From NCBI GenBank assembly GCA_038877255.1, contig JAVYWZ010000001.1, positions 7,661-71,660 of the forward strand: 64,000 nt of DNA. Direction: 5' to 3'. Of the stretch, positions 36,801-57,186 are shown in pieces. The notes under the pieces were generated by a model, which searched no databases, was not told the origin of the DNA, and worked only from the letters and a program-made list of their open reading frames with translations. The DNA is from Candidatus Micrarchaeaceae archaeon. Its GTDB lineage: Archaea > Micrarchaeota > Micrarchaeia > Micrarchaeales > CABMGC01. A program made the translations under genes and the position numbers. The number at the start of each line of letters is the position of its first letter. Positions within the stretch are counted from its first letter, which is position 1.

Positions 36801-36809
36801 CCAAAAACC

Positions 36810-41168: not shown

Positions 41169-41179
41169 TCAAACGCCTG

Positions 41180-42655
41180 TTATTCTTTTCCAAGACCTAT
41201 GCCTTTTATCTGCTCCTTTATTACATCTTCGTCAGCGCCGTTGCTGACTTTTGCAGTAATTGCAAGGTATTTTGTCAAGCCGACTTCAAGGCCTTCCGGA
41301 GTCTCAGAAATGCAGATCTTGCCTGACTGAGTGCCATGTACTTCTCTCGGTGCGAAGTGAGGATGCTTCTTTGCGAGAGGCGACTTGACGCGCCTTATGT
41401 GCGCTAACATTGATATCATATTAGTTCTATCAAGAACCTGGGAAACACCAGTTTGGCCTGCGGTCCACGTGCCTGTGCCCATTGCATACGCTATTTTTTC
41501 AGTAAGAGTGTCAGAACTTATTATGTTGCTTACGTTTAGCTTTCTTCCGCGCGCGCTGGATCTCTCAATCTGGTACTTGACGTCTTTTATGAAGAACTTT
41601 AATGCATATACAAAGAGCTCTTCCATCAAAGGCCCTGCAAACTTCACGCGCCTATTTGCGTAATGGTCTTTGTCATCTTGCCTTGCAAGCTTGTTTGCAA
41701 CCTTGCAGGCTTTCCTTGCCATCTGAATAAGGTATATGCCTTTTAATTCCCTGCTTTCGCTTGTTGTGCCTATGTGTGGGAGCAGGTATGTATCGATTTG
41801 TGTTTCTGCACGCCTTAGCTGATATTCCTTTGCCTGTCCGGGAGCGGCGCCTGCTCCGAGCTCCAAGAGAGCGTCGCTTGGGCCCATATTTCCTGCGCTG
41901 CTGAGTTCTCTGTTTAATAGCATGTCGTTCATGAACACAGTCAAATCGCTTGCTTGGTTCATAATGCGCTCATGCGTAAGACCAAGCGCACGGAGAAGAG
42001 TGTAAAGTTCTACTCCGCCTTTCTTTGAAGTAGGAAATTCAACAGAAAAAACACCATGCATATTCCTTGTGACTACTGTCCTTGCCCTGAAACCAGGTGC
42101 AGTTGAGAATACCTTTGAAGTTACAGAGCCGTCTTTCTCTTTTGTCACTATCACACGGTTTGGAGCCAGGTCTTCCAAGCCAATAAGAACACGTTCTGTG
42201 CCTTTAATAAGGAAGTAGCCGCCTTTGTCTTCAGGGTCTTCGCCCTGTTCAACAAGCTGGGTACTTGTCATGTTCTTTGTGTGGCAGAGGTTGCTGCCTA
42301 CCATAACAGGCAGCTCTCCTATGAATACCTCATTGGCATCGTTCCTTTTCTCTATGCCCCTTATTATTGGCATTATTTCAAGGAACATCGGTGCTGCATA
42401 TGTCAGATTTCGCAGCCTTGCCTCATTTGGCATGAGCACGCGCCTTGAGCTATCTGCTTCTATTACTGATGGCTTTTCAAGCCTCAGCCTGCCAAGCCTA
42501 AGGCCAAATCCTTCGACATTGGGCATTATTACATTGTTTGCGTCGATTATCCTCTGAATTTCTATCTCAACAAATCTGTTGTAACTTTCAAGCTGGTGCT
42601 GCACTATAGAAGTAGATTGAAGAAGCGAATCTAGCAACAAATCGGAGTGGTCCAT
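41180..42655 (-). CDS. rpoB2: DNA-directed RNA polymerase subunit B'' (N-terminal half of B)
   Basis: 'HQLESYNRFVE', 'GGYFLIKGTERVLI', and 'RVKSPLAKKHPHFAPREVHGTQSGKICISETPEG'. Confidence 0.96.
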   Translation of the reverse strand: MDHSDLLLDSLLQSTSIVQHQLESYNRFVEIEIQRIIDANNVIMPNVEGFGLRLGRLRLEKPSVIEADSSRRVLMPNEARLRNLTYAAPMFLEIMPIIRGIEKRNDANEVFIGELPVMVGSNLCHTKNMTSTQLVEQGEDPEDKGGYFLIKGTERVLIGLEDLAPNRVIVTKEKDGSVTSKVFSTAPGFRARTVVTRNMHGVFSVEFPTSKKGGVELYTLLRALGLTHERIMNQASDLTVFMNDMLLNRELSSAGNMGPSDALLELGAGAAPGQAKEYQLRRAETQIDTYLLPHIGTTSESRELKGIYLIQMARKACKVANKLARQDDKDHYANRRVKFAGPLMEELFVYALKFFIKDVKYQIERSSARGRKLNVSNIISSDTLTEKIAYAMGTGTWTAGQTGVSQVLDRTNMISMLAHIRRVKSPLAKKHPHFAPREVHGTQSGKICISETPEGLEVGLTKYLAITAKVSNGADEDVIKEQIKGIGLGKE

Positions 42656-42679
42656 CGAAACATCTAATTGCTTAATAAG

Positions 42680-42895
42680 TTACTGTCTGGGAACTACTAG
42701 CCTGTAGTACTTTGATTTGCCGCGACTTATTTCTATTACTTGACCTATTTTTGCTCCTAGCAGCTTTGCTTGCGGATCGTCTACAAAGATTTTTGGTAGG
42801 TTTGCAAGGCTAAGGCTTAGCTTTTTAAGCACGCTCTCGGCTTCGCTCTGGCTAAGGACTTTATGTGGCGGTACAAGGTAGTGATCGCTATTCAA
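42680..42895 (-). CDS. rpoH: DNA-directed RNA polymerase subunit H
   Basis: 71 aa. 'HYLVPPHKVLSQSEAESVLKKL...LPKIFVDDPQAKLLGAKIGQVIEISR'. Sits first in the rpoH-B-A order. Confidence 0.92.
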   Translation of the reverse strand: MNSDHYLVPPHKVLSQSEAESVLKKLSLSLANLPKIFVDDPQAKLLGAKIGQVIEISRGKSKYYRLVVPRQ

Positions 42896-43047
42896 TTCTA
42901 CACCTAAAAAAAGCTACAGGCTACTGGCTACCAATATTTATGCAAGAAAAGTCTTTTATAGCTTTCGCTGTTTGCAGAGCGGCTTCATACTATGCAGAAG
43001 CGCTGATTTTATGTACTGACTTTCGGAGTTTCTAAAAGCAATATTTC

Positions 43048-43092
43048 TCCTAATTTAAGTTTAGGAGCTTCAAGGGCTTGATTGATTGTCAT
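43048..43092 (-). repeat. copy 2 of the conserved 45-nt element (encodes MTINQALEAPKLKLG; 27-codon ORF 43009-43092)
   Basis: See 21305-21349. Lies ~150 nt upstream of rpoH on the same strand. Confidence 0.7.
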
Positions 43093-43200
43093 TATGCAAT
43101 AAGCATATTTCCTGCTTCGCAGGCAATTGCTTCTTATTTGGCAAGCTACTGCTAGGCAAAGAGATAAAAACCTTAAGTAAAATATTATTTGTGTGATTTT

Positions 43201-43617
43201 ATGATAACAGGACTAACTGTAAGCAGCGTATCTGCGAATAGGCCCACTAACGAGAGCATAACGAACATGAAGTTTAACATAAACTTTGATGATGTAAAAG
43301 TAGATAACGGCAATGTGGAGGTCTTGTATACGTTCACTGCTGATTACCAAGGAGGCGAGAATAACAGCAAGAGCGTCGGCGATCTTAAGATAGCAGGCAA
43401 AATAAGTGCAAAGGAAGACAAGAAAAAGTCAGACGAAATAAGCAAGACGTGGCTTGACAAGAAAACACTGCCCATAGATTTTGCTGAAGATCTTATCAAT
43501 CTGCTCAACTTCGAGTGCGGATCAAGGGGCACATTGCTTGCATGGAGCATTGGCTTGATAGCGCCGCTGCCTCTTTCAAGGGCAAAGTTGCAGGAGCAGC
43601 AAAAGCCTGCAACATAA
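43201..43617 (+). CDS. hypothetical protein (138 aa)
   Basis: ATG at 43201. The N-terminal half looks beta-rich, followed by a Lys-rich linker and a helical C-terminus. No family recognised. Confidence 0.5.
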   Translation: MITGLTVSSVSANRPTNESITNMKFNINFDDVKVDNGNVEVLYTFTADYQGGENNSKSVGDLKIAGKISAKEDKKKSDEISKTWLDKKTLPIDFAEDLINLLNFECGSRGTLLAWSIGLIAPLPLSRAKLQEQQKPAT

Positions 43618-43662
43618 AGCAGCAAGCACAACAATTATTAGAATTGACACAAAACAAATATT

Positions 43663-46083
43663 ATGCAATTACATGGCATAGTGCTTGACGTAGATACCAT
43701 TTCTGAAGGCAGCAGAAGCATAATAAGGCTGGCAGTAAAAACGCAGCAAGGCTTCATAGCAATTTATGATTACAACTTCATGCCGTATCTTTACCTGCAC
43801 CCTAGAAACGAGAGACTGAGCGCTGACGCGATAGCCAGCATAAAGGTGCCAAACGGCAATTCTTACGCTACGATAAAAAAGATTGAGAAAAAGGAAATGA
43901 GCCTGTTTGGCAGGCAAATAAACGTGTTCAAAATCTATACAGAGGACGCAAAGAATATACCGCAGCTTAAGTCCTATTTAGAAGAGTTCGGCACCTGCTA
44001 CGAGTACGACATTCCTTTCTGGAAACGCTACCTAATAGACAAAGATATTTCTCCGCTCAGTGGCATAAGCGCAGAAGTGCATGAGGAATCCGAAAAATTG
44101 AGCATAGACAAGATAGAAAATTCAGATGAAAGCGGAATAGAGCTATCGCATTTGTGTTTTGACATAGAGACGTATAATCCAAAGGCCGAGCCGAGAATGA
44201 ATATAGACCCGATAATCATGATAAGCTTTGCGAATGAAAAGGTAAAGCACATAATTTCTACAAAACGCGTTAACAGGGATTTTGCAATAAAGGCAAAAGA
44301 TGAGAAGGAAATGCTTGAACTGTTCGCAAAGGAAATAAGAGAAGGGGATTATGACATAATCGCAGGCTACAATTCCTCTAATTTTGACATACCTTATTTG
44401 CTAACGCGCGCCAAGAAGCTCAACGCGGAATTTGATATATGTAGATTTGAAAATGAAACGCCATACACTATGCACCACGGCCTACTGAACCTTGTCAAGA
44501 TACCAGGAAGGATAAACATCGATGTTTACAATACCGCCAGGTTCGTCGCAGTAGTCGGCACTGCAGAATACCTTATAAAAGTCAACAGGTTTACGCTCGG
44601 CGAGGTCTACAAGGCGCTAACGGGCAATGTGAAGAAAACAGTTAACAAGCCAGGCATATACAAAATGTATGACTCTGAAGGCGACGAACTAGACAAGCTT
44701 GCAGATTATTCGCTTGACGACTCTGTTTCACTTGAAGAGCTCTATCGATTCTTCATGCCCCTTGAAATAGAGATTTCTAAACTTGCAGGCACTACTCTAG
44801 CAGAAACTGCAATATCGACTACAGGCCAGCTTGTCGAATATTTGCTCATGCGCTATGCACACAGAAACAACCAGCTGATACCAAACAAACCAGAGGGCGA
44901 AGAGATAAACGACAGGCTCTCAAACTCTTTTGAAGGAGCATATGTAAAAACGCCGAGCGCAGGAATATACAACAATCTTGCCGTGCTTGACTTCCGCGGG
45001 CTATATCCTTCAATAATAATAGCGCACAACATAGACCCTTCTACATTGCTCAACGCGCAGGAAGGTGCAGGCATCGACTGCTATGAATCACCAACAGGGG
45101 CAAGATTCAGGAAAGAGCCTAAGGGAATAATACCTACGGTGCTAAAGCTTTTGATAAACGAGAGGGAAGGCGTTAAGAAAGCATATAAGCAGAACCCAGA
45201 CAACAAGGCGCTTGGCGCAAGGTCTCAGGCGCTTAAGATAATAGCAAATTCATTCTATGGCTATTTGGGCTATGCAAGGTCGCGTTGGTACTCGCGCGCC
45301 TGCGGGGCAAGCGTAACCGCATATGGAAGGGATTACATAAAAGAAACAATAGAAAAGAGCGAACGCGCAGGCTTCCAGGTGCTTTACTCAGATACCGATA
45401 GCGTGGTCTTGCTTCTTGGAAACAAGACAAAACAAAATGTTCTTGACTTTCTGAAGCAGGTAAATAGCGAATTGCCAGAGTCGATGGATCTTGAGCTGGA
45501 AGACTTTTATGTCAGAGGCGTCTTTGTAGGCAAGAAAGGCGGTGGTGATATCGGTGCTAAGAAGAAGTATGCACTTCTTTCAGAATCAGGAAGGATAAAA
45601 ATAAGGGGCTTCGAGCTAGTGCGCAGGGACTGGTCAAGTATAGCAAGGGAAACCCAGAAAAAAGTTCTTGAGGAGATTTTGAAAGAAGGCAGCAAGGAGC
45701 GCGCTGTTGCAATAGTAAAAGAGGTCATAAAGAAGCTGCAAACAGGCAATGTGGAGCTGAAAGACCTAGTAATCTACACGCAGCTGAGAAAGAGCATAAA
45801 TACATATGATGCCACTTCACCCGAGCTCAAGGCCGCACAGAAAGCGATAAAGAAGGGCAAGCTGCTTGCAGAAATGGAGAATGCAACAATAGGCTACATA
45901 ATAACAAAACATGGCAGCAGCATATCAGACAAGGCAGAGCTCGAAGAATACGCGCAAGACTACGACGCTGATTACTACATAAACCATCAGGTAATACCAG
46001 CTACGCTGAAGATACTCAAGGAGCTTGGCGTGAGCGAGGAGGAGCTGAAGGGCGAAGGCATGCAAAGAAGGCTAGGTAGTTAG
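43663..46083 (+). CDS. polB: family B DNA polymerase
   Basis: Exo motifs 'FDIETY' and 'YNSSNFDIPYL'. Pol motifs 'DFRGLYPSIIIAHNI', 'KIIANSFYGYLG' and 'YSDTDS'. Confidence 0.96.
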   Translation: MQLHGIVLDVDTISEGSRSIIRLAVKTQQGFIAIYDYNFMPYLYLHPRNERLSADAIASIKVPNGNSYATIKKIEKKEMSLFGRQINVFKIYTEDAKNIPQLKSYLEEFGTCYEYDIPFWKRYLIDKDISPLSGISAEVHEESEKLSIDKIENSDESGIELSHLCFDIETYNPKAEPRMNIDPIIMISFANEKVKHIISTKRVNRDFAIKAKDEKEMLELFAKEIREGDYDIIAGYNSSNFDIPYLLTRAKKLNAEFDICRFENETPYTMHHGLLNLVKIPGRINIDVYNTARFVAVVGTAEYLIKVNRFTLGEVYKALTGNVKKTVNKPGIYKMYDSEGDELDKLADYSLDDSVSLEELYRFFMPLEIEISKLAGTTLAETAISTTGQLVEYLLMRYAHRNNQLIPNKPEGEEINDRLSNSFEGAYVKTPSAGIYNNLAVLDFRGLYPSIIIAHNIDPSTLLNAQEGAGIDCYESPTGARFRKEPKGIIPTVLKLLINEREGVKKAYKQNPDNKALGARSQALKIIANSFYGYLGYARSRWYSRACGASVTAYGRDYIKETIEKSERAGFQVLYSDTDSVVLLLGNKTKQNVLDFLKQVNSELPESMDLELEDFYVRGVFVGKKGGGDIGAKKKYALLSESGRIKIRGFELVRRDWSSIARETQKKVLEEILKEGSKERAVAIVKEVIKKLQTGNVELKDLVIYTQLRKSINTYDATSPELKAAQKAIKKGKLLAEMENATIGYIITKHGSSISDKAELEEYAQDYDADYYINHQVIPATLKILKELGVSEEELKGEGMQRRLGS

Positions 46084-46108
46084 AGTTTAATGCCCGCGAT
46101 GTGATTTA

Positions 46109-47089
46109 ATGAATGACATAAACACAAACACAAACGCAAATATAAATACAAATACAAATACAACCGACATAAAAAGGAAAGAAAAGGAAGATGCAAAATA
46201 CAGTTATAACTATGCAGAGTGGCGAGAAGCAGGCGCACTGTCATACAAGGCAATAAACTATGCCAAAACGCTGATAAAGCCTGGCGCCAAGATTCTCGAT
46301 GTTGCAAACGCAGTAGAGGCGTACGTACTTGAAAATGGGCAAAGGCCAGCGTTTCCCATAAACCTTTCAATAAACGAAGCCGCAGCGCACTACACGCCTG
46401 GGGCAAGCGACACTGCTGTTTTTACTGAAAAAGATCTAATAAAGGTTGATTTCGGCTCAAAGAAAGGCACAGGCGCAGGTGATTGCGCACTGACCATTGA
46501 CTTGTCTGACAAATATGCTAAGCTTGTAGAGGCAAGCGAGAAGGCTCTGCAAGAAGCAATAAGCATAGTAAAGGCGGGAAGGCGCGTCGATGAGATAGGA
46601 AAAGCAATAGAAGCTGTGGCAAAGTCATATGGCTTCTCGCCGATACGCAACCTTGGAGGCCATGGCATAACAGAAACAGATCTGCATGCATATATGTTCA
46701 TTCCGAACTATGACAACGGCGATGCCACAGAGCTCGAAGAGGGCCAGGTAGTTGCAATAGAGCCTTTCATGACCACAGGTGAAGGCTATGTGGTTGAGGG
46801 CACAACCATAGAGATATTGGCTAAAACAGCAGATACAAATCCGCGCTCACAAGCTGCAAGAAGGGCGCAGACCTTCATAAATGACAATTATGGCACGTAT
46901 CCATTTGCAATACGATGGCTCACAAAAGAGCTCGGCGAATTTGAAGCCAGAAGAGCGATAGCAGAGCTTTCAGCGCTTGGCGTTATAGAAGCGTATCCAG
47001 TACTGATTGAGCGCAGCAAGGGCATGGTAGCACAGTCAGAAGCAAGCCTAATAGTAACGACAGATTCGTGCGAAATAATTACGAAATAG
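46109..47089 (+). CDS. map: methionine aminopeptidase, type 2 (archaeal)
   Basis: 'PAFPINLSINEAAAHYTP', 'GGHGI', 'EPFMTTG'. Carries a ~32-aa N-terminal low-complexity extension and has no alternative in-frame ATG. Confidence 0.9.
   Translation: MNDINTNTNANINTNTNTTDIKRKEKEDAKYSYNYAEWREAGALSYKAINYAKTLIKPGAKILDVANAVEAYVLENGQRPAFPINLSINEAAAHYTPGASDTAVFTEKDLIKVDFGSKKGTGAGDCALTIDLSDKYAKLVEASEKALQEAISIVKAGRRVDEIGKAIEAVAKSYGFSPIRNLGGHGITETDLHAYMFIPNYDNGDATELEEGQVVAIEPFMTTGEGYVVEGTTIEILAKTADTNPRSQAARRAQTFINDNYGTYPFAIRWLTKELGEFEARRAIAELSALGVIEAYPVLIERSKGMVAQSEASLIVTTDSCEIITK
46121..46164 (+). repeat. imperfect hexanucleotide repeat (ACAAAY)n within the map 5' coding end
   Basis: 'aacacaaacacaaacgcaaatataaatacaaatacaaatacaac' encodes NTNTNANINTNTNT. 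Confidence 0.85.
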
Positions 47090-47112
47090 AACAAATTGAT
47101 GCGCTCTGCAGG

Positions 47113-47220
47113 CTCAGCGTCGGTGAAGCGAGAAATGTAAGGCTTGCAATAGCATACAGCACAACGCAGCGAACCAATCACGTGCTTTTGCTCTGCATTA
47201 CGCATGCAGAGTCAATGTGA
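47113..47220 (+). pseudogene. argS 3'-terminal fragment (~35 codons), non-functional remnant
   Basis: Translates to '..GEARNVRLAIAYSTTQRTNHVLLLCITHAESM*', against the true ArgRS C-terminus 'GEARNARLAIVYITMQTIANGMLLLGITPAESM*'. Similarity stops abruptly at 47112, 22 nt after the map stop. Confidence 0.85.
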
Positions 47221-47282
47221 AACATAAAACAAAAAAACAATTCATTAAACGCTTACAAAAGCAGCATTACTGATATATAAGA

Positions 47283-47299
47283 ATGTGCAGTCTGCACAT
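47283..47299 (-). terminator. perfect 8-bp hairpin abutting the surface-protein stop codon
   Basis: 'atgtgcag t ctgcacat'. On the mRNA it is followed by the U-rich 'uucuuauauau'. The equivalent sequence in repeat copy B is degenerate. Confidence 0.4.
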
Positions 47300-50200
47300 C
47301 ACGACACGCTGCCGAAGCTGACGCTTGGCATTACGCCATTTGGCGGGTAGGCACGGGTGCGGAGCCAATAAATATATTGTAACGATGAAGTACGAAGGTA
47401 ATATTCATATGTTGCAAAATTGAAACATGAAAGGGTCTCTGTTGTAGCTGTTGTTGTAGAATAGATACTTGTATAATTTATTAGCATACTTAATGAAGTA
47501 CCTGAAGCCATAGACATAGTGTATATTTTAGTGCCGTTTGTATCGTGATAACCTGTAGAAGCACTAAATTCCACACCATTATTGCCTAAATATATTAAAT
47601 TAGATGTTGTGTTACCTTCCGAAAACGAATATCCTGAAAAGTTGCTTGGCAATCCTTCAGAAGTTCCTATGTAGCTACCATTTAATTTAATTGCATCATA
47701 CATATTACCATATACATCCCATACTGTTGTAGTGCTTTTTAATGATGCTGGAAGCGTGCAAAGTAATAGCCCATCCCAGCCCGATGAATTTGATGCTATT
47801 TCTGTATATGTTGATGCAAATGTTACAGCTGTATTACCCATCCTGCTCCAGTTTGAAGGAAGCCCATGTCCATTTAATCCTCCCCATCTTTGATAATATG
47901 TGAACACGCTTGCCCCATCATCGTATTGGGCGTAGGTGCTTGAGAGCTGCGGGGCTTCCCCTATGCCAGTTGTGCCTGAGCTTGATAAGAGGTTTGTGGT
48001 CTTTGAGGCAAAGCCGAGATAGAAGCTTGTAGTTGTGTTCTTAATCTTTACCCATGTGATAAGCTTGCCTGAGCTGTTGCTTTCAATCCAAGCAGGTATT
48101 ATCGTGCCATTCGCATAAAAGTATTCAAAGTTTGCGAAATTGTTGTTATACGCAATATATGAAGAATATGTGCTTTCTGTAATATTAACCATTTGCTGAA
48201 CGTATGCGCCGTGTCCAACATTCCATGAGGTTGAAAGGCTCAATTGCGTATATGTGGTTATACCTGAAGGTAAAGGTAAAGATCTTACAGTTAAACTTTG
48301 TGGTGTGCTGTTTTTGCCTGCTGTTATATCATTAGCGTAATAGCTGCTGTATGTGCCTGCTGCTAAAGCTCCTGCTGAATATGTATAGGTTGCGCTTCCT
48401 GTGCCTGTGGCTATGGCTGTGCCTAAGCTTGGGTAGTCTATTGCGCAGCTATCTGTGCTTGGGGTGCAGGTGGCTGTAATGGTTATGGCTGAGCCATAAG
48501 CAGCCGGGTTAGGGGAAATGGTGAGCGTAGGAATACCTTGCATACCACCGAAGCTGACGCTTGGCATTACGCCATTTGGCGGGTAGGCACGGACACGAAC
48601 CCAATATACATTTATAGGATAAGTTGTTGAAACTAAAGATTGAGCTGGGCTAAGCCAATTTGAAATTGTAATATATAAAGGAGTAGTAGGCACATATGTG
48701 GTAGTTGAAGCATAAGATGTAGTTTCACTGTTATACGCTACATAGAATTCAGAAGAGGTATACCAAACACCAAATATGTTATAATTTGAATTTGGCGAAA
48801 TATAATTACTTTTGACAAAACCATTATAATTTGATGCTGTTGTAGTTTCGGCATCTACTCCGTTAACCTGAAATGCATCTCCTACCCATCCACCACCTAT
48901 TTCATTCTCTGAATTATCTGCATGCCAAGCTTCTGAATTAGATGCTGTTACACTTAATGGAACAATTCTAAAATTGGTAGTATAAAATGAATTTAAATTT
49001 GCATAGCTTTCTATTATCTGATTTCCTGTTATTTCAAAAGAATTACTTGATATGTATGTGTAAGAGCCAGTAGCGGCGCTATATGGTATTGTTTCCGTTA
49101 AACCATTATTAATTGAAATTGTTCCTCCCGAGCTCCCACTATTCCATTTGGTTGTATTCAATGTCGTTCCAGCAAAGTTATCGTAGAAGTTGAACACGCT
49201 TGCCCCGTTATCGTATTCTGCGTAGGTGCTTGAGAGCTGTGGCGCTTCTCCAGTGGGTCCAGACGCTGACATGACATTGCTTGGCATGAAGTCCATGTAA
49301 ATAGTGATGCTGCTGCTGGCGCCTATGCCGTTAGGCAGGTTTATCCATACGATAGTATGCGTTGCCGTATTGCTGGCATTTGATTCTACCCATGCCTGCA
49401 GCGCTGTACCTGTGCCGTCGCTTCCTGTCGTAAATTCCACATTGCTCCACTGAGAATTAATGTAAGAGGAATAGGTACTGCTATTTACAACAACCATCTG
49501 CTGGAACGGCGCTGGCGTTGCTGTGCTCTGCGAATTCGTAAGTGTTATTGGCACGTAGTAGATGGTTGTGGTTGAGGTAGTGGATGTTGTCGAGGTCGAT
49601 GTCGTTGACGTTGTTGAAGTCGTTGAAGTCGATGTCGTCGATGTCGTTGAGGTAGAGGACGTTGTCGAAGTTGATGATGTTGAGGTAGAGGATGTTGAAG
49701 ATGTTGAAGATGTTGACGTTGTTGAAGTGATAGTGACAAACACTGCCATTATTGACCCGTTTCCAGACGATGAAAACGCAGTGCTCTGCGAAGACGTACT
49801 TTCGATTGAAACATTATGCGATACGCTCCAAGAGCCAAAGTCATATGTGCTGTTTGGCTGCGCAAAAATGGAATAGCTTACAGTATATAGCGTAATTACA
49901 TTGGCCCCGTTTCCATATGGCGTGCCATCCAACTTGATCTTGCCGATATTGCTCGGGCTCGTTTCAAGTGTTATGCGGTCGAAAACAGGTCTTTGCGGCG
50001 AAACCGTAGCGGTAGCAGCGCCGCTAAAATTGTAAGGCGTGCACTTTCCATCTGTACAAAGTTCATACGTTGCTGCAAAATTTACGTTTGATTGGGTGCC
50101 TATGCTTCTAAAAAGACCAGTTGCTGTGGCGTTGCAAACAATTAGAGAATAGGGCTTTGCAACATAAGGAGTGCATGTTCCTGTAAAGCCAGTCGTATTG

Positions 50201-50472
50201 TAATAGGGGAATAAGCTGAAGGAGTTTGCTGTAAAGCTTATATTTACGTTCATATAGTTGCTAAAAACAACAACGCCTTTAAGCCCTGATGCGTTTTCCA
50301 TAAGCAAGAAATCCTCGCACGGGAATGTTGGCGAAATGTAACATGAAGCAGGCGCATACGCGCTTATTCCCTTTGAAGAAACAAGAATCAAAATCACGCT
50401 TACAAATATTGCTATTATTATAAACGACCAGCCATATGTCGTAAGAAATTCAATTGCAGACTGTTCCCGCAT
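47299..50472 (-). CDS. giant surface protein with class-III (type IV pilin-like) signal peptide, Ser/Thr linker and two DUF2341/LamG-like modules (1057 aa)
   Basis: 'MREQSAIEFLTTYGWSFIIIAIFVSVILIL' at the M20 start (50472), which avoids overlap with trm5. A 56-aa S/T tract. Two modules of 'YY(V)PITLTN...VEF...AWVES...IVWINLP' type, each followed by 'GEAPQLSSTYA(E/Q)YD(N/D)GASVF' and ending in 'YPPNGVMPSVSFG'. Confidence 0.8.
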   Translation of the reverse strand: MREQSAIEFLTTYGWSFIIIAIFVSVILILVSSKGISAYAPASCYISPTFPCEDFLLMENASGLKGVVVFSNYMNVNISFTANSFSLFPYYNTTGFTGTCTPYVAKPYSLIVCNATATGLFRSIGTQSNVNFAATYELCTDGKCTPYNFSGAATATVSPQRPVFDRITLETSPSNIGKIKLDGTPYGNGANVITLYTVSYSIFAQPNSTYDFGSWSVSHNVSIESTSSQSTAFSSSGNGSIMAVFVTITSTTSTSSTSSTSSTSTSSTSTTSSTSTTSTTSTSTTSTTSTTSTSTTSTTSTTTIYYVPITLTNSQSTATPAPFQQMVVVNSSTYSSYINSQWSNVEFTTGSDGTGTALQAWVESNASNTATHTIVWINLPNGIGASSSITIYMDFMPSNVMSASGPTGEAPQLSSTYAEYDNGASVFNFYDNFAGTTLNTTKWNSGSSGGTISINNGLTETIPYSAATGSYTYISSNSFEITGNQIIESYANLNSFYTTNFRIVPLSVTASNSEAWHADNSENEIGGGWVGDAFQVNGVDAETTTASNYNGFVKSNYISPNSNYNIFGVWYTSSEFYVAYNSETTSYASTTTYVPTTPLYITISNWLSPAQSLVSTTYPINVYWVRVRAYPPNGVMPSVSFGGMQGIPTLTISPNPAAYGSAITITATCTPSTDSCAIDYPSLGTAIATGTGSATYTYSAGALAAGTYSSYYANDITAGKNSTPQSLTVRSLPLPSGITTYTQLSLSTSWNVGHGAYVQQMVNITESTYSSYIAYNNNFANFEYFYANGTIIPAWIESNSSGKLITWVKIKNTTTSFYLGFASKTTNLLSSSGTTGIGEAPQLSSTYAQYDDGASVFTYYQRWGGLNGHGLPSNWSRMGNTAVTFASTYTEIASNSSGWDGLLLCTLPASLKSTTTVWDVYGNMYDAIKLNGSYIGTSEGLPSNFSGYSFSEGNTTSNLIYLGNNGVEFSASTGYHDTNGTKIYTMSMASGTSLSMLINYTSIYSTTTATTETLSCFNFATYEYYLRTSSLQYIYWLRTRAYPPNGVMPSVSFGSVS
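47312..47356. repeat. exact 45-bp direct repeat inside the surface-protein gene (copy 1)
   Basis: 'ccgaagctgacgcttggcattacgccatttggcgggtaggcacgg' is identical to 48548-48592. It encodes the module-terminal PPNGVMPSVSFG. Confidence 0.9.
48548..48592. repeat. exact 45-bp direct repeat (copy 2)
   Basis: Identical to 47312-47356. Confidence 0.9.
49564..49731 (-). repeat. Ser/Thr-coding tandem-repeat tract
   Basis: Encodes TITSTTSTSSTSSTSSTSTSSTSTTSSTSTTSTTSTSTTSTTSTTSTSTTSTTSTTT from reiterated 'gtcgatgtcgttga'-type units. Generates spurious antisense ORFs. Confidence 0.9.
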
Positions 50473-50485
50473 TGTCTCTATGTAC

Positions 50486-51547
50486 TTATGTAGCAACAAT
50501 TTTAAGTTTGTTGCCATTCTTGTGAGCACCCATGCTTCTTTTGCCTATTATTTCAAAGTCTACTACTATCTCTACTTCACTGGGCGAATACGGCCTTACT
50601 GTCCTCGAGAACAAGAACCTCGGCTCTGCGCCGTGCGAATTTAAAAACGCCTTTATGGCCTTCTTGCTCTCTTCAAGCGCGCTCTCCTTTTTGCCAAATG
50701 TGTAATAGTGCACAATGCATCTATTCTTTGCAGTTTCTAATGCCTGTTCTAAGAAGTCGTAGCTGCTCTTGGGCAGAGGCATCACTATCCTGTCAGCCCA
50801 GCCGGCAAAGCGCCTTGCCACTTTCTTAACATCGCCGTGCACCGCTGTTATTTTTGTTTTGTTTAGCCTTGCGTTTTCAAGCATGCTCGTGTAGGCGTAC
50901 TTGTTTAGCTCTATTGCTGCTACCTCTGCTCTTTTGTGCTTTGCAATCTCTATTGCAAAAGGCCCAACACCTGCAAACATTACAAGCACATGCTCCTGTT
51001 CTTTAACCTGCTCAGTTATTCTCTTTCGCTCGTACGCTAGCCTGGATGAGAAGAATGCTTTTCTTATGTCAAACACGAACGTGCAGCCATTTTCCTTGTA
51101 AGTTGCTATGTAATTTTTCTTTCCAAGCACATATGCATAATGTCTTTTTCTGTACTTGCCTTTTACCGCGCCTTTCTTCATAACTACTGTTTTTATGTTT
51201 TGGTTCGCCTTCATAACTGCTTTTGCAAGCTCCTTTGCGTGCTCGCTTTCGTTTATTATCGCTATATTGCCAAGCACATCATATGCCAGTGCTTCTTTTT
51301 CCTCTGTGCTGATTAAATCTTTCAGCCTTTTTCCCATTTTTCTTTTCTGCATGGCAAATTTTCCAATTACAGGCTTAGCAGCAAATTTATTCAGCATTTT
51401 TGCTGCTGCGGAGTCTAGGCGGAAGACAGGAATATATATAAATCTGCCTTTGCCAAATATTTTGTAATTTAGGTTAAGCAAGTTTCTTTGCCTCAAATAT
51501 CTTTTTGCCTTTTCAGCGTTTTCCTTTCTGACTTTTATGCCTAACAT
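50486..51547 (-). CDS. trm5: tRNA (guanine37-N1)-methyltransferase Trm5-like class I SAM methyltransferase
   Basis: 'VLVMFAGVGPFAIEIAK' SAM-binding motif and 'IVMPLPKS' (NLP-like motif). ATG at 51547. Confidence 0.8.
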   Translation of the reverse strand: MLGIKVRKENAEKAKRYLRQRNLLNLNYKIFGKGRFIYIPVFRLDSAAAKMLNKFAAKPVIGKFAMQKRKMGKRLKDLISTEEKEALAYDVLGNIAIINESEHAKELAKAVMKANQNIKTVVMKKGAVKGKYRKRHYAYVLGKKNYIATYKENGCTFVFDIRKAFFSSRLAYERKRITEQVKEQEHVLVMFAGVGPFAIEIAKHKRAEVAAIELNKYAYTSMLENARLNKTKITAVHGDVKKVARRFAGWADRIVMPLPKSSYDFLEQALETAKNRCIVHYYTFGKKESALEESKKAIKAFLNSHGAEPRFLFSRTVRPYSPSEVEIVVDFEIIGKRSMGAHKNGNKLKIVAT

Positions 51548-51623
51548 GCAACCATATTTAAATAATGAACATGATAAAATAAAATGAATAGCATATGCTG
51601 AATAGAGCATTGAAATATATTAT

Positions 51624-51654
51624 GTGTTGTGAAGTGTTGTGAATATGCTGTGAA
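51624..51654 (+). repeat. tandem decamer gtgttgtgaa x2 plus a degenerate third copy, in the spt5 leader
   Basis: 51624-51633 and 51634-51643 are identical, and 'gctgtgaa' follows at 51647-51654. The repeats lie between the TATA-like 'gaaatatatta' (~51612) and the spt5 ATG (51667). Confidence 0.7.
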
Positions 51655-51666
51655 TTGAGCGGTTTT

Positions 51667-52119
51667 ATGTACTTTGTTGTAAGGGTAACTTCAAGCCAGG
51701 AGCGCATCTCGGCAGATATACTGCAGAACAAGGTAGAGAAGACAAACCTGCCTGTGTATGCTATTGTAGTTTCAGAAGGGATGCGCGGCTATCTCATTGT
51801 TGAAGCACAGGACCTTAATACCATAAAGGACCTAGTCCAAGACGAACCACATATGAAAGGCGTGCTTTCAACCCCGCTGAGCAAAGAAGAGCTGGACAAG
51901 ATGATAGCTATAAAGAACGTAATACAGGAAATAGCAAGCGGCGACATAGTAGAATTCGTGTCTGGGCCATTCAAGGGCTACAAGGCAAAGGTAATTAAAT
52001 CAGAAAAAGGCAAAGAGGAGATAACAGTAGAGCTTATGGATGTTGCAGTGCCAATACCTGTAACAACTAAAGCCGGCGCTGCAAAGATAATAGAAAAAGC
52101 CGAGAAAGCAGGCAGTTGA
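51667..52119 (+). CDS. spt5: transcription elongation factor Spt5 (archaeal NusG)
   Basis: NGN domain 'MYFVVRVTSSQE...' and KOW motif 'GDIVEFVSGPFKGYKAKV'. Followed by L11, as usual. Confidence 0.9.
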   Translation: MYFVVRVTSSQERISADILQNKVEKTNLPVYAIVVSEGMRGYLIVEAQDLNTIKDLVQDEPHMKGVLSTPLSKEELDKMIAIKNVIQEIASGDIVEFVSGPFKGYKAKVIKSEKGKEEITVELMDVAVPIPVTTKAGAAKIIEKAEKAGS

Positions 52120-52120
52120 C

Positions 52121-52588
52121 ATGGCAGAAACAATAATAAACGGTTTGATAGAAGGAGGCAAAGCCACTACAGGGCCGCCATTCGGACCAGCGCTCGGTCC
52201 CCTTGGGGTAAACATAGGCAAGATAGTCGCTGAGATAAATGAAAAGACAAAGGAATTTGCAGGCATAAAGGTTCCTGTAAAAGTGTTTGTAAACTCCGAC
52301 AATAAAGAATACCGCATAGAAGTGGGCATGCCTCCTACAAGTGCGCTCATACTTAAAGAAATTGGCGCACAGAAAGGCGCAAAGTCGAAGGACGAAGCAA
52401 TAGGCAATCTCACTATTGAGCAGCTAAAGAGAGTCCTTGCAATCAAGTCTGACATGCTTTATGGAAAGTCAGACAAAGAAAAGCTCAAGCAGATAATAGG
52501 CACGTGCAAGAGCATGAACGTTACTGTTGAAGGCAGTGACGCAAAGATAGCGCTCAAGAAAATAAGCTCTGGCGAGCTTAAATTGTGA
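52121..52588 (+). CDS. rpl11: 50S ribosomal protein L11 (uL11)
   Basis: 'GGKATTGPPFGPALGPLGVNIGKIV'. Confidence 0.95.
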   Translation: MAETIINGLIEGGKATTGPPFGPALGPLGVNIGKIVAEINEKTKEFAGIKVPVKVFVNSDNKEYRIEVGMPPTSALILKEIGAQKGAKSKDEAIGNLTIEQLKRVLAIKSDMLYGKSDKEKLKQIIGTCKSMNVTVEGSDAKIALKKISSGELKL

Positions 52589-52659
52589 TAGATACTGCGC
52601 AGATATTGCGCTTTTGAACACAGGTGCTTTTCATAGAGCTCACAGGCAATAACCTGCTA

Positions 52660-53286
52660 ATGGTTTATTCTTTGCTCCGTGCTCATTTTGGTTTTCTGAA
52701 CTGGTGGCCCGCAAGCACAGAGGACGAGATGCTGATAGGTGCAATCCTTGCGCAAAATACCAGCTGGAGGAATGTAGAGAAGGCAATAGCCGAGCTGAAG
52801 CGTAGGCGCCTGTTGCGCCTAAATGCAATATCAAAGGCAAACACGCGATCATTGGCAAATGCAATACGCTCTAGTGGCTTTTACAAACAAAAAGCAAAAA
52901 GGCTTAATTTATTTGCAAAATTCGTAATGCGCCAAGGCTCGTTCAAGGGGTTCTTAGCGCGCAATAGCGACGCAAGGCAGACGCTGCTTAGCATAAGCGG
53001 AATAGGAAGAGAAACAGCAGATTCTATGCTGCTTTATGCAGGCAACATGCCGTTTTTCGTTATAGATGCGTATACAAAACGCATAATGAACAGGGTATTT
53101 GGCACTGAAATTCTAGACTATGATTCGCTCCAAGAGCAGATTTCTAGCCTCATTCCAAAAGATGTTGAGCTTTACAAGGATTTTCACGCGCAGTTCGTAG
53201 AGCTTGCAAAGAATTTCTGCAGGAAAAAGCCCATGTGTGATAAATGCCCTTTGCGCAACGTCTGCAAGTTCAACACACATTTATAA
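52660..53286 (+). CDS. endonuclease III-related HhH-GPD DNA glycosylase with Fe-S cluster
   Basis: 'ILAQNTSWRNVEKA', the HhH 'LLSISGIGRETADSMLLYA', 'VIDAYTKRI', and the C-terminal 'CRKKPMCDKCPLRNVC'. Confidence 0.8.
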   Translation: MVYSLLRAHFGFLNWWPASTEDEMLIGAILAQNTSWRNVEKAIAELKRRRLLRLNAISKANTRSLANAIRSSGFYKQKAKRLNLFAKFVMRQGSFKGFLARNSDARQTLLSISGIGRETADSMLLYAGNMPFFVIDAYTKRIMNRVFGTEILDYDSLQEQISSLIPKDVELYKDFHAQFVELAKNFCRKKPMCDKCPLRNVCKFNTHL

Positions 53287-53314
53287 GTCTTCTTTCTGTA
53301 TCTGTTTCGTTTGC

Positions 53315-53944
53315 ATGCAGTTCCTAAAAGGATTTTTTCAGGGTGGCGAGGAAAGCATATTGCGCAGGTACAATACAATAATAGACTTGGCGCTTAAAGC
53401 AAACAAGGAAGTCGCGCTTGTGCAACGCACAAAAGACATTTCAAAAGTGCGCGCAATAGAAAAGAATTCTGACGAAGTAGTTTTTACAATATCCAGCATG
53501 ATAACTACAGGCGGCATAGCGCCTAACCTTATCGATAATTTGCTCCAATTGGCAGATCTGGAAGACAGCATAGTCGATTCAATATACAACCTTGCAAGAG
53601 AGCTTATAAGGTATTCTATAAAGGAAACAAGGGCGCGCAGTGTGCTTGAGGAATCATTTTCAAAAATGAATGGCTTTGCAGCCCAAGCACTCACACTTCT
53701 TCATAAGATGCAGGAGAGCGACAGCATTGGCGATATAAAAGAAATACGCCATTCAATAGAGCACATAGAAGAGGCAGGCGATGAGATAAAAGATTCGCTT
53801 TTCGATTTCGCATACGGCTCCAAAATAAACTTCAAGACCTTTTATCACATTTTTGAGGTTGCACACCTGCTTGACGATGTGCTCGACAACTGCGAGGACT
53901 CGTCAGACATGTATCTTACGATTATCACTTCTGTTTTGACGTAA
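53315..53944 (+). CDS. DUF47 / PhoU-like phosphate-transport accessory protein
   Basis: 'IEKNSDEVVFTI' and 'LADLEDSIVDSIYNLA' fit the two-repeat DUF47 pattern (lE.eaD / lDdi.D). Lies upstream of a PiT-like gene. ATG at 53315. Confidence 0.65.
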   Translation: MQFLKGFFQGGEESILRRYNTIIDLALKANKEVALVQRTKDISKVRAIEKNSDEVVFTISSMITTGGIAPNLIDNLLQLADLEDSIVDSIYNLARELIRYSIKETRARSVLEESFSKMNGFAAQALTLLHKMQESDSIGDIKEIRHSIEHIEEAGDEIKDSLFDFAYGSKINFKTFYHIFEVAHLLDDVLDNCEDSSDMYLTIITSVLT

Positions 53945-54192
53945 ACTGCCTATCCATGAATGGTGTGGGCTTTCCATAAGTTGATGAAACATGTTGCACA
54001 GCAACACTCTTTTCAACAACCACATCTGGAAGCAAATGGTCGTTTACAAGACCACTCCTATTGGAAATCTGGAAGGTTTTATGGTTAGTAATATCCTTCC
54101 GCTCCAAGAGGGATTTCACTTTATCAACTACACATATATATTTACAAAGATTTATAGTACTCTCGCTCGACAATTCATCACACCGCTAAAGC

Positions 54193-55140
54193 GTGTGGGC
54201 TTCCTTGTCGAGAATACGTGATCGCTTGTTGCTGTTTTTGCTCTTGGCACTTGCCTTTGCGCTTATCGCCCTTGTATCGGGAAATAACCTTTCCGCTTGT
54301 ACTGGTGCGGTAATTGCCAGTGGAATAACAAGCAAGCGCACAGGAATAAGCATAGCAATACTAGGTTTTATAGCAGGGCTTGTCCTTCAAGGGTCGCTGC
54401 TCAAGAAGGGCATAGAGGCGATTATGCCAGTATATTCAAGCATGCTTCTCGTGGAGATTTTCGCAATAGCAATAATAATATTCTTGATTGCTGATAGGTT
54501 CAGGGTGCCTCTGTCGCTTACCATAATTTTTACAAGCATGCTCGCAGGCATAGGCTTCGGGCTTAATATGCACGTCAATCTTGAATTCCTGTTTCTAATA
54601 GGTGCGTTCTGGGTTGCTGTGCCGCTTGCTTCGGTTCTACTTATGCCACTTCTGCTTCATTGGCTCACGCGCAGGCTCAACAAAGGCCGCGTGTGGAGCA
54701 AGGTTCATGCCATAAAGGTTTCCCTTATTGTTGTTTCATTTCTTACCTCATTCACGCTTGGCGCCAACACAATAGGCCTTCTCTACTCTTCTCTGCCAGT
54801 TGCTGCTACATATAAACTTGCAGTTTCTGTTCTTGCGATAATCATTGGCAGCATTTTCATAAGCCATGGCGAAATAAAGAGGCTTGGCGAAGAGATAGTG
54901 CCGCTTAGATATGTCAACGCTGTAATTTCTCAACTTGTCTCTGCTGTTGAGGTGGAGATTGCAACGCTGTTTGGCGTGCCTTTATCAAACACGCAGACGT
55001 TCACTGCAAGCCTTTATGGGGCAGGCTATGGCTACAAGGCAAGGCTCATGCGCAAAAAGCCAGCATATGTAATATTGTCTATCTGGTTTGCAAGCGCCGC
55101 ATTGAGCTTTATGCTCGCATTCGCACTAACAAAGATATAA
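54193..55140 (+). CDS. pit: inorganic phosphate transporter, PiT family (divergent)
   Basis: Polytopic. 'SGNNLSACTGAVIASG' and 'LGANTIGLLYS' resemble the duplicated GANDVAN motif. Paired with DUF47. GTG start is uncertain. Confidence 0.6.
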   Translation: MWASLSRIRDRLLLFLLLALAFALIALVSGNNLSACTGAVIASGITSKRTGISIAILGFIAGLVLQGSLLKKGIEAIMPVYSSMLLVEIFAIAIIIFLIADRFRVPLSLTIIFTSMLAGIGFGLNMHVNLEFLFLIGAFWVAVPLASVLLMPLLLHWLTRRLNKGRVWSKVHAIKVSLIVVSFLTSFTLGANTIGLLYSSLPVAATYKLAVSVLAIIIGSIFISHGEIKRLGEEIVPLRYVNAVISQLVSAVEVEIATLFGVPLSNTQTFTASLYGAGYGYKARLMRKKPAYVILSIWFASAALSFMLAFALTKI

Positions 55141-55197
55141 TTTATAAAAGTGAGCGGAAAACCCCCTATCCTTCAGATATGGGATGAGAGCGAATCC

Positions 55198-55405
55198 GCA
55201 GCGTGTCGTGATGCGCAACTGACATTCTTATATATCAGTAATGCTGCTTTTGTAAGTGTTTAATGGATTGTTTTTTGTTTTATGTTTTGTGTTTCACATT
55301 GACTCTGCAGGGGTAATGCCGAGCAAAAGCATGCCATTGGCGATTGTTTGCATTGTGATGTATACTATCGCAAGCCTTGCATTTCTTGCTTCTCCGCCGC
55401 CGAGC
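55198..55405. repeat. inverted repeat, copy B (~208 bp)
   Basis: Partner of 47112-47312. It covers the last ~112 nt of the intact argS, the spacer, and a 14-nt remnant ('gcagcgtgtcgtga', ..SVS*) of the surface-protein 3' end. Confidence 0.9.
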
Positions 55406-57186
55406 ACAGGCTCTTTTTCGTAGAACCCACTGAATAATGCAGAAAGCCTAAGCAAATACTCTGCCACTGTATTGGGTCTATATGAAATCGCCGCGCTAGT
55501 AAAAACATCTTGCGCATTCCCTATAATTTTTATAAGCTCGAATCCTGGTCCGCGACCTATTTCCTTGTAATCCTTTTCAGTAAGCTGTGCCTTTTTGTAC
55601 TCTCCTTTTTCAAGTATTCTGCGTGCTCTCGCATACATGTACATTACGTACGGGCCGCTGTTTGCTTGAAGGTTTAGCGCATTTTCCCAAGAAAAGACAA
55701 TGCCTTTCTCAGGAGATACTCTTAAGTATTCAAACTTTATGGCTGAAAGCGCTATGCGCTTAGCAGTTTCTTCTGCAGCTTCCTTTGCAACCTTTTTGCT
55801 TTCTTTTGTTTTTTCCAAAACCTTTTTTATAGCTTCTTTAAGCAGATCATCTGCGGTGTAATTGCGTTCTTCACCAAGCCAGCCGCCTTTGCGCCCGCTC
55901 AACGTGCCTTTTTCAAGTTCAACTTTGCCATAAGCTACATGCACAAGCTCTCTGCTTAAACCTTGCGCTGTTAGTTCAAGCAGTGCCTTTACCACATCTT
56001 GCTCTGCGCTTTGGCCCATGTCTATTATGTTGACTACTTTTTTTGCGTTGCCGAAAGCCATGTCTTTTCCAGATTCACTGCTCGTATACAGCGGTTTTCT
56101 GTTAGGCTGTTCCTCTATGAAACGCGAGAACCTGAAATTGCCCATGAGCAAGCCGAATTTCCACAAGTGGAAAGCAAAATCCTTCATTGCATATGTGGCT
56201 ACGCCATTGCTCCTTATGAGAACCTTGTACTTTTCCTTAGGATTTTCAAACTCCTTTGCCTGCGCCTTTGCCTTTTCCAAGTCGAGCACAAGGCAATCTT
56301 TGTAATCGCCTTCGCTGACCTTTTCCAATATTCCTTTTCTTTTAGCTATCGACAGAGCGCTCTCAAGGAGCTTGCTCTTCACTATGTTGCTTTCCCACAT
56401 AAGCACATCGTGATATATGCCAAATGCGAATGACGTTTCATACTGCGCCTTTACGCATTCTTCAGCGAGTCTTCTCGCTATTTTTGCCTCTTCAGTATTG
56501 CCAAGCTCCATTCTCTTGAGAATTGTGTCTATTTCTTCCTGCACGCCCTTCTGTTCAATAATTCTATTTACCTCGACGTACTGCTCGCCCAGGAACTGAT
56601 CAAATTTTTTGCCCTTCGGGTCTTTGCTTATGTGCAAATAGCCCCACAGCGTCTCTGCCATCTGAAGACCCAAATCGTCTATGTAGTTTTCGCGCTCTAC
56701 CCTATAACCACAGAATTCAAGCATGTTTGCTATGGCATCGCCCAGCAGCGCGTTCCTCAAATGGCCTACATGCCAAGGCTTAGTGGGGTTTACGCTTGGG
56801 TATTCAACAATTACCTTTTCGTCTTTTCCAATGTTGCTAGAGCCATAATCATCTGCTTCTTCCAGAACAGAGCCTATGACAAGCTTCGAGTATTCTGTTT
56901 CGTCAAAATATGCATTTACATAGCCATTAACGCTTGAAAAGGATTTTACAAGTATGCCTGGTTTTGCATGCTCTGCCAGTTTTGTTGCTATCTCTTTTGG
57001 GTTCTTTTTTAGCTGTTTTGCGATCACAAACGCGAGCGAAGAACTTATATCGCCAAACGATGATTCTGGAATAGTTATGCTCTGCAATGCCTCTTGCATG
57101 TCCAGCGAAATGCCAAATGACGCGTTAGCTGCGTTTATTACTGAGGTAGCAAATTCCTCCTTTGCTGCTAAAAAAGGACTTGGCAT
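55294..57186 (-). CDS. argS: arginyl-tRNA synthetase
   Basis: 'SVNPTKPWHVGHLRNALLGD' (HIGH-type motif) and the typical C-terminal anticodon-binding domain ending '...ESM'. Confidence 0.95.
   Translation of the reverse strand: MPSPFLAAKEEFATSVINAANASFGISLDMQEALQSITIPESSFGDISSSLAFVIAKQLKKNPKEIATKLAEHAKPGILVKSFSSVNGYVNAYFDETEYSKLVIGSVLEEADDYGSSNIGKDEKVIVEYPSVNPTKPWHVGHLRNALLGDAIANMLEFCGYRVERENYIDDLGLQMAETLWGYLHISKDPKGKKFDQFLGEQYVEVNRIIEQKGVQEEIDTILKRMELGNTEEAKIARRLAEECVKAQYETSFAFGIYHDVLMWESNIVKSKLLESALSIAKRKGILEKVSEGDYKDCLVLDLEKAKAQAKEFENPKEKYKVLIRSNGVATYAMKDFAFHLWKFGLLMGNFRFSRFIEEQPNRKPLYTSSESGKDMAFGNAKKVVNIIDMGQSAEQDVVKALLELTAQGLSRELVHVAYGKVELEKGTLSGRKGGWLGEERNYTADDLLKEAIKKVLEKTKESKKVAKEAAEETAKRIALSAIKFEYLRVSPEKGIVFSWENALNLQANSGPYVMYMYARARRILEKGEYKKAQLTEKDYKEIGRGPGFELIKIIGNAQDVFTSAAISYRPNTVAEYLLRLSALFSGFYEKEPVLGGGEARNARLAIVYITMQTIANGMLLLGITPAESM

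Follow-up and report, generated by a model that had tools for sequence, protein, structure and literature searches.

Duplicated gene ends and gene relics are left behind by several kinds of rearrangement. In the pattern known from segmental duplications, a gene is relocated by duplication together with a hitchhiking piece of its flank, and the original is then lost. Mobile elements that integrate into the 3′ ends of genes leave a duplicated gene tail at their att sites, and in the pilE/pilS system of Neisseria, pilin paralogs recombine at conserved segments. At inversion breakpoints of Drosophila, staggered breaks leave inverted duplications (Ranz et al. 2007, PMC1885836). Here we analysed an inverted repeat of about 200 bp in a stretch of 64,000 nucleotides (the window; positions 7,661 to 71,660 of contig JAVYWZ010000001.1, assembly GCA_038877255.1), which comes from a metagenome-assembled genome (MAG) of a Micrarchaeaceae species of the DPANN archaea, called W below. 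The two copies of the repeat lie 8 kb apart, and each of them joins the tail of argS to the end of a gene for a DUF2341 pilin-like surface protein. DUF2341 proteins have been proposed as tip adhesins of archaeal type IV pili (PMC4858521).

We consider it fairly probable that the two copies are the leftovers of one former tail-to-tail junction between argS and a DUF2341 adhesin gene, which was copied to the gap between map and an M48 peptidase gene and then lost from its first location. The finding is ordinary in kind, that is, a rearrangement relic, and its relevance lies in surface-protein variation in host-attached archaea with reduced genomes. The dead argS tail (psi-argS) would serve as a marker of an adhesin cassette that moved within the genome and was recently common to two co-occurring Micrarchaeaceae species. 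An inverted repeat built from gene ends was insufficient for calling an inversion; gene order in outgroups and other assemblies of the same species decided the matter.

The repeat and its two neighbourhoods

A sequence-only reading of the window had put the identity of the repeat at 80-90% by eye, and had described argS as intact beside a surface-gene remnant at the right copy, and the surface gene as intact beside a dead argS tail, 22 nt past map, at the left copy. The repeat proved to be real and to be built in this way. A repeat finder returned four collinear inverted arms across 47112-47315 and 55195-55405 (Table 1), and when 47112-47315 (204 nt) was aligned globally to the reverse complement of 55195-55405 (211 nt), there were 179 matches, 23 mismatches and 11 gap columns, corresponding to 88.6% identity over aligned bases and 84% with gaps counted. 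The longest exact run between the copies, 35 nt (47252-47286 and 55222-55256), occurred exactly twice in the window and in none of 100 shuffles. Each unit consists of the argS tail, a spacer of 78 nt (left) or 82 nt (right), and the last codons (SVS*, the asterisk marking the stop codon) of the DUF2341 pilin-like gene. At the left, the stop codon of map (47087-47089) is followed by psi-argS (47112-47220), the spacer, and the stop codon of the surface gene (47299-47301, ..FGSVS*, minus strand). At the right, the stop codon of pit (55138-55140) is followed by an RSVS* remnant (55197-55211), the spacer, and the end of the live argS at 55294. Pfam matches confirmed PolB, the M24 aminopeptidase, the DUF2341 protein, Trm5, Spt5, L11, HhH-GPD, DUF47, PHO4 and ArgRS.

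Dozens of homologs in the DUF2341 family end in ..YPPNGVMPSVSFGSVS, and many end in ..FGSVS. Because the C-terminus of the family is conserved, RSVS* beside argS is a true gene remnant and was not read in from the gene at the left. The two genes were thus formerly convergent and their junction was duplicated, as had been proposed from the sequence alone; argS and the DUF2341 surface gene must once have been convergent neighbours with this spacer in some genome of the lineage.

The window was compared with several other assemblies of W (GCA_038878495.1, GCA_038876895.1, GCA_038876905.1 and GCA_038729145.1), which are MAGs at 99.5-99.8% identity. The map-side assemblies of W compared were L017, L018, L019 and L020, and further contigs of W were L001, L002 and L011. 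A sister species, S (GCA_038881455.1), was represented by contigs L010 (argS/pit/trm5 region) and L013 (polB/map region); outgroups were L012 (GCA_023270025.1) and, for the map/M48 region, L014. Over six proteins, identity was 78% between W and S, and 67% and 66% for comparisons of these two with L012.

On the argS side, S (L010) and L012 have a common gene order: argS(+), a 342-aa gene, DUF460, SecY(-), V4R, a membrane protein, DUF929, pit(-), DUF47, an nth-like gene, rpl11, spt5(-), trm5(+), a small pilin-like gene, RNR and PolD. Three more distant relatives (L005, L006 and L008) also have argS next to the 342-aa gene and DUF460. Since S and L012 have this order in common, and L012 is more diverged (67% and 66%, compared to 78% between W and S), the order is ancestral. 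The orientation of pit to spt5(-) and of trm5(+) relative to argS(+) is identical in W (L001), S and L012, and thus the 8-kb block between the repeat copies was not inverted. W differs from its relatives in two respects: 6 kb between argS and pit are gone, and the gene after trm5 is much longer. The missing segment (L010 539-6700; L012 746-6677), which holds the conserved 342-aa gene, DUF460, SecY, V4R, the membrane protein and DUF929, was absent at 55141-55194 and from the whole window. SecY of W must therefore lie outside the window, elsewhere in the genome.

On the map side, the left copy was found after map in all four independent conspecific assemblies, as well as in S. Two of the former (L017 and L018) are collinear with 36109-47363 of the window at 99.75% identity, and between the map stop codon and 47363 none of the four differs from the window. 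Past this position, they switch to a sequence that is identical among themselves. L017 and L019 show the order map, psi-argS, spacer, D526(-), M48 peptidase(-), PNPOx and OTCase, D526 being a gene for a pilin-like protein of 526 aa; the 8-kb block is not there. L018 and L020 contain the same start of D526, and both contigs end just inside it. The polB and map contig of S (L013) has the same dead argS tail, spacer and junction, and ends inside the spacer core. In the outgroup L014, map(+) and M48(-) are 36 nt apart (M48 is 73% identical), compared to a gap of 2272 nt in L017 that is filled by psi-argS, the spacer, D526 and the 482-nt region upstream of D526. These elements together thus form an insertion of about 2.3 kb, and since map and M48 still have the orientation to each other that they have in L014, an inversion breakpoint between them is ruled out.

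The sequence-only reading had explained the repeat by a staggered inversion, in which argS and the surface gene were convergent, the block from 47.3 to 55.2 kb was flipped, and the junction was duplicated in the process. A staggered inversion would produce a repeat of exactly this composition, the mechanism is known from Drosophila (PMC1885836), and the right copy does sit at a true break of ancestral synteny, where argS stands without its conserved downstream neighbours. The inversion itself did not hold up, however, because the block is oriented relative to argS as it is in S and L012, which is the ancestral state, and the left copy occurs in genomes that lack the bracket. L017 and L019 continue from the left copy to D526 and M48 and not to the block, and in S, which carries the left copy, the ancestral neighbourhood of argS is intact, so that L017-L020 and S are relatives with the duplication and no inversion. 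Additionally, the copies are about 11-16% diverged, but the junction at 47363 is private to one assembly in a population that is otherwise nearly uniform. We give the staggered inversion a very slim chance. We also rejected, as a separate candidate, a single older inversion by staggered breaks, one of which would lie between map and M48; it predicts that M48 would be flipped at the far end, and M48(-) directly follows D526(-).

Origin of the copies and order of events

Over the argS tail, psi-argS of W and psi-argS of S are 97% identical, psi-argS and live argS of W 83.5%, the live argS genes of W and S 73%, and psi-argS of either species and live argS of S 65-67%. When the differences within W were polarised by argS of S, 12 of 17 were assigned to psi-argS and the other 5 to the live gene. 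At 23 sites, the base in psi-argS was that of argS of W and differed from argS of S. This agreement indicates that the fragment came from argS of the W lineage, after the split of W and S.

The direction of copying could also be reversed, with an older map-side unit that came in from a third lineage and replaced the native tail of argS and the region downstream of it by ectopic recombination or gene conversion. The timeline is compatible with this, since the copies within W are more diverged than the left copies of W and S, and at one spacer site the right copy of L001 has the base of the left copy, where the right copy of the window differs. Such an overwriting, however, needs a conversion tract whose end lies 14-23 nt inside a gene that the target locus lacks, and the polarised changes (12 on psi-argS, 5 on the live gene and 23 common sites specific to W) fit a pseudogene from W's own argS. 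We regard this direction as improbable.

The segment after map is 92% identical between W and S, compared to 76% for map and 79% for polB (Fisher p = 9e-7), and the copy in S is thus much younger than the species split. The frame of psi-argS is open in W, and the copy in S has a stop codon and a frameshift, so that selection at the protein level does not explain the conservation. The simplest reading of these sequences would be a recent lateral exchange of the map-side cassette between W and S, with a transfer that presumably ran from W to S. Divergence shows an order in which the species split came first, the duplication second, and the exchange between species last.

A repeat that is kept for a function, as a bidirectional terminator or 3′ untranslated region module, as a small RNA, or as a programmed flip-flop crossover site, would also explain two similar copies. 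In line with this, the spacer is slightly better conserved between the copies than the argS part (89.5% vs 83.5%), the left unit is 97% conserved between species, and both copies have T-tracts on the sense strand of the upstream gene. The difference between spacer and tail is not significant, however (p = 0.29), and the conservation between species covers the frameshifted pseudogene equally, which fits recency and not selection. A search of 46800-55700 against Rfam at E<=1 returned no family. Flip-flop recombination, which had been suggested from the sequence alone, is possible in principle but unsupported, with copies of 204 nt at 88% identity and at most 35 exact bases in a row. As had been said for the interior of the block, Pfam searches of all open reading frames (ORFs) of the block and its flanks found no recombinase, and the flipped isomer was present in no assembly; no other conspecific assembly compared has the block next to map in either orientation. 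We consider a function that maintains the repeat to have a low probability. The spacer itself probably acts as a terminator, judging from its sequence, and would serve the adhesin gene in the left copy and pit in the right one. A terminator-like hairpin, which the sequence-only reading had assigned to the left copy, is indeed restricted to that copy (47282-47300), but it is a weak match to the consensus, with 1 site found against 0.7 expected. A scan of viral contigs with the spacer core gave 0 matches, and there was no sign of a virus or plasmid origin.

Copying followed by loss, the history we favour, would start from an ancestor of W in which a gene for a DUF2341 pilin-like adhesin stood tail-to-tail with argS. 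First, a piece of about 2.3 kb (109 nt of argS, the spacer, the adhesin gene, which would be D526, and its upstream region) would have been copied between map and M48, giving the left copy. Second, the original adhesin gene beside argS would have been lost, and the spacer and RSVS* would have stayed behind as the right copy; the 6-kb segment is gone from there as well. Third, the map-side cassette would later have been exchanged with the sister species. Fourth, in this contig, the 3′ end of D526 would have been joined at 47363/47364 to the trm5-linked paralog, placing the copies 8 kb apart and inverted. Features of a relocation are present, as the new locus is an insertion in comparison with the outgroup (L014 only) and carries a fragment of the old neighbour, and a relic stands at the old locus.

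Several points weigh against this history. No genome with an intact junction of argS, spacer and adhesin gene was found; an intact argS convergent with a full DUF2341 gene was seen at 0 of the 7 argS loci examined, and the donor state is a reconstruction. Copying and loss take at least two events, where a staggered inversion takes one. The 6-kb segment, including the essential SecY, is not traced in W, and the adjacency of map and M48 comes from a single outgroup, L014. In S, the map-side contig stops inside the spacer, so the gene that follows the spacer lies beyond it. The relative orientation and distance of the repeat copies are seen in the window contig only, and not in other assemblies of the species. 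As for traces of the donor locus, a metagenome scan with a 20-mer across the end of argS and the start of the spacer gave one match (L016), which is unrelated and due to chance; the spacer showed no detectable homology past the coding tail to the spacers downstream of argS in S and L012; and a search for a remnant in the 482 nt upstream of D526 found nothing significant.

Junctions within the surface-protein gene

The window leaves all four conspecific map-side assemblies exactly at 47363/47364, directly upstream of the conserved C-terminal motif RTRAYPPNGVMPSVSFGSVS*. The bracket in the window hangs on this junction, which no other assembly has. L011, a trm5-linked contig of the same species, tracks the window through the N-terminal domain, the Ser/Thr linker and half of module 1, and departs at about 49193, at a point that directly follows the conserved motif GEAPQLSSTYAEYDNGASVF. 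The surface gene has two modules of about 410 aa, whose conserved blocks (47312-47375 with 48548-48611, and 47901-47961 with 49191-49251) are 89% identical in DNA, and these blocks are the sites where other assemblies depart from the window. Contigs also end here: L001 and L011 do so within the gene and L018 and L020 a short way into D526, and the ends of L002 and L013 fall at or within the 35-nt core (for L002, 36 nt beyond the stop codon of argS; for L013, 16 nt into the core). Contig ends at the core are as expected if a common core breaks assembly graphs.

We interpret the bracket as a secondary join between paralogs, for which homologous recombination and chimeric (de Bruijn) assembly are about equally likely. 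The 8-kb spacing of the two old copies is secondary under either origin. An assembly artefact, in which a chimeric contig was joined at the conserved 3′ motif of DUF2341 paralogs and possibly again at about 49193, has in our estimate a chance just short of even; the real copies would then lie at unrelated loci, as in the other MAGs, and the account of their origin would be unchanged. In its favour, the four conspecific assemblies agree mutually and disagree with the window from 47364 on, positions 47364-49192 have no match of at least 90% in any other record, other assemblies fragment in the same region (L001, L011, L018, L020, L002 and L013), and both junctions lie at the edges of conserved motifs. 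On the other hand, the resulting ORF is intact and in frame, with a domain order known from homologs, and mosaicism of surface proteins at the strain level is common. We flag position 47363, and possibly also about 49193, as a probable weak point of this public MAG contig.

The surface gene at the left encodes a DUF2341 protein of 1076 aa on the minus strand, and its N-terminal 264 aa are the ortholog of a stand-alone 248-aa gene after trm5 in the sister species (74%). D526, known from L017 and L019, encodes a protein with a class III signal peptide and a single module, which shares 49-57% identity with the modules of the window gene; its C-terminus (..RTRAYPPNGVMPSVSFGSVS*) is as in that gene, and its Pfam match to DUF2341 is below threshold. 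The N-terminal domain of D526 (L017 11191-12771) has about 37% identity with a further paralog of the family, a small pilin-like gene that RNR and PolD flank in both the sister species and the outgroup (L010 14543-15019; L012 14208-14693). Exact matches on record were absent for the map protein of the window and likewise for its surface protein. The latter had no entry in the protein collection with three start codons tried, of which the one query that had V for M at GTG is a weak test, and none of its homologs was at least 90% identical.

A broader possibility is that the 3′ unit of DUF2341 genes (the C-terminal motif, spacer and argS fragment) and their signal-peptide end serve as portable homology arms for swaps of adhesin cassettes. 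Such swaps would take place between loci, strains and even species of host-dependent Micrarchaeota and would be the archaeal equivalent of pilin cassette variation; psi-argS would then be a barcode that records the traffic. If this were true, two outcomes of the process would be the mosaic gene of the window and the unit that keeps 97% identity in a species with about 78% identity elsewhere. We believe this broader idea to be unlikely.

Coordinates of the features are collected in Table 1. The 50-aa ORF that covers psi-argS is an annotation by-product of this fragment; in other assemblies of the species it lies at 10960-11112 of L018 and 3636-3788 of L020. Within the right spacer, the window reads AAACACTTAC at 55257 and L001 (at about 11934) reads AAACGCTTAC, the base of L001 being that of the left copy; this difference could be a polymorphism or a small trace of gene conversion. 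The Ser/Thr-rich linker differs in length between the window and L011, with 474 aa aligning to 451 aa. Between L014 and L015, both from related Micrarchaeia, LeuRS-FtsZ is inverted relative to polB-map, and the polB-map neighbourhood appears to be prone to rearrangement across the family.

Table 1. Features of the inverted repeat, the surface-protein gene and the neighbouring block (window coordinates).
Feature	Position	Strand	Remarks
Inverted arm 1	47112-47168 / 55349-55405		Repeat finder
Inverted arm 2	47174-47236 / 55278-55340		Repeat finder
Inverted arm 3	47227-47286 / 55222-55281		Repeat finder
Inverted arm 4	47293-47315 / 55195-55217		Repeat finder
50-aa ORF covering psi-argS, GTG start	47068..47220	+	MEM0147281.1 and MEM3211902.1, "hypothetical protein" in two conspecific MAGs
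psi-argS (dead argS tail), last 109 nt including stop	47112..47220	+	22 nt past map stop; reads LSVGEARNVRLAIAYSTTQRTNHVLLLCITHAESM*
Left spacer, 78 nt	47221..47298		T-rich on sense strand of surface gene; holds 35-nt core 47252-47286
3′ end of surface gene, last 21 codons and stop, RTRAYPPNGVMPSVSFGSVS*	47299..47363	-	3′ end of D526 in four conspecific assemblies
Surface-gene segment: module 2, Ig-like linker, C-terminal half of module 1	47364..49192	-	No match of at least 90% identity in any other assembly or protein record
Ser/Thr-rich linker, 9/15-nt periodic repeats	49543..49749	-	Repeat finder; length differs in conspecific L011
N-terminal pilin-like domain, class III signal peptide	49738..50475	-	74% identity over 246 aa to L010 11075-11812
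trm5(-), spt5, rpl11, nth-like, DUF47, pit(+)	50486..55140		Order and orientation relative to argS ancestral
3′ remnant of DUF2341 gene, RSVS* at 55197-55211	55195..55211	+	54 nt past pit stop; fits family C-terminus
Right spacer, 82 nt	55212..55293		Core 55222-55256; T-rich on plus strand, downstream of pit; also in independent assembly L001
Live argS, 630 aa	55294..57186	-	Last 109 nt plus stop (55294-55405) form outer part of right copy

Comparison with known systems

As in the breakpoint duplications of Drosophila, a single-copy junction of a few hundred bp is doubled and inverted here, and each copy holds one live gene and one dead fragment. In contrast to those duplications, the DNA between the copies is not inverted with respect to outgroups, and one copy flanks other genes elsewhere. 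Because the block is un-inverted and the left copy stands beside other genes in relatives, the link between duplication and inversion is absent. With elements that integrate into gene 3′ ends, the locus shares a gene tail that lies dead some way off from its intact gene; the orientation of the copies in this contig is inverted, however, the repeated sequence runs past argS into the spacer and a further gene, and Pfam found no integrase.

The locus has in common with pilin cassette systems a large family of paralogs, a class III signal peptide, a conserved C-terminal motif and a conserved 3′ flank. The points where assemblies part are exactly the edges of conserved motifs, which recalls such systems, although these junctions may here be assembly artefacts. 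Unlike pilE/pilS of Neisseria, the locus has no silent copies and no sign of non-reciprocal conversion. In comparison with models of duplicative relocation, the moved cassette apparently crossed a species boundary, and transposase and integrase are absent. The likeness to duplicative relocation lies in the argS fragment that travels with the gene, the relic that stays at the old site, and the new site that is an insertion relative to the outgroup.

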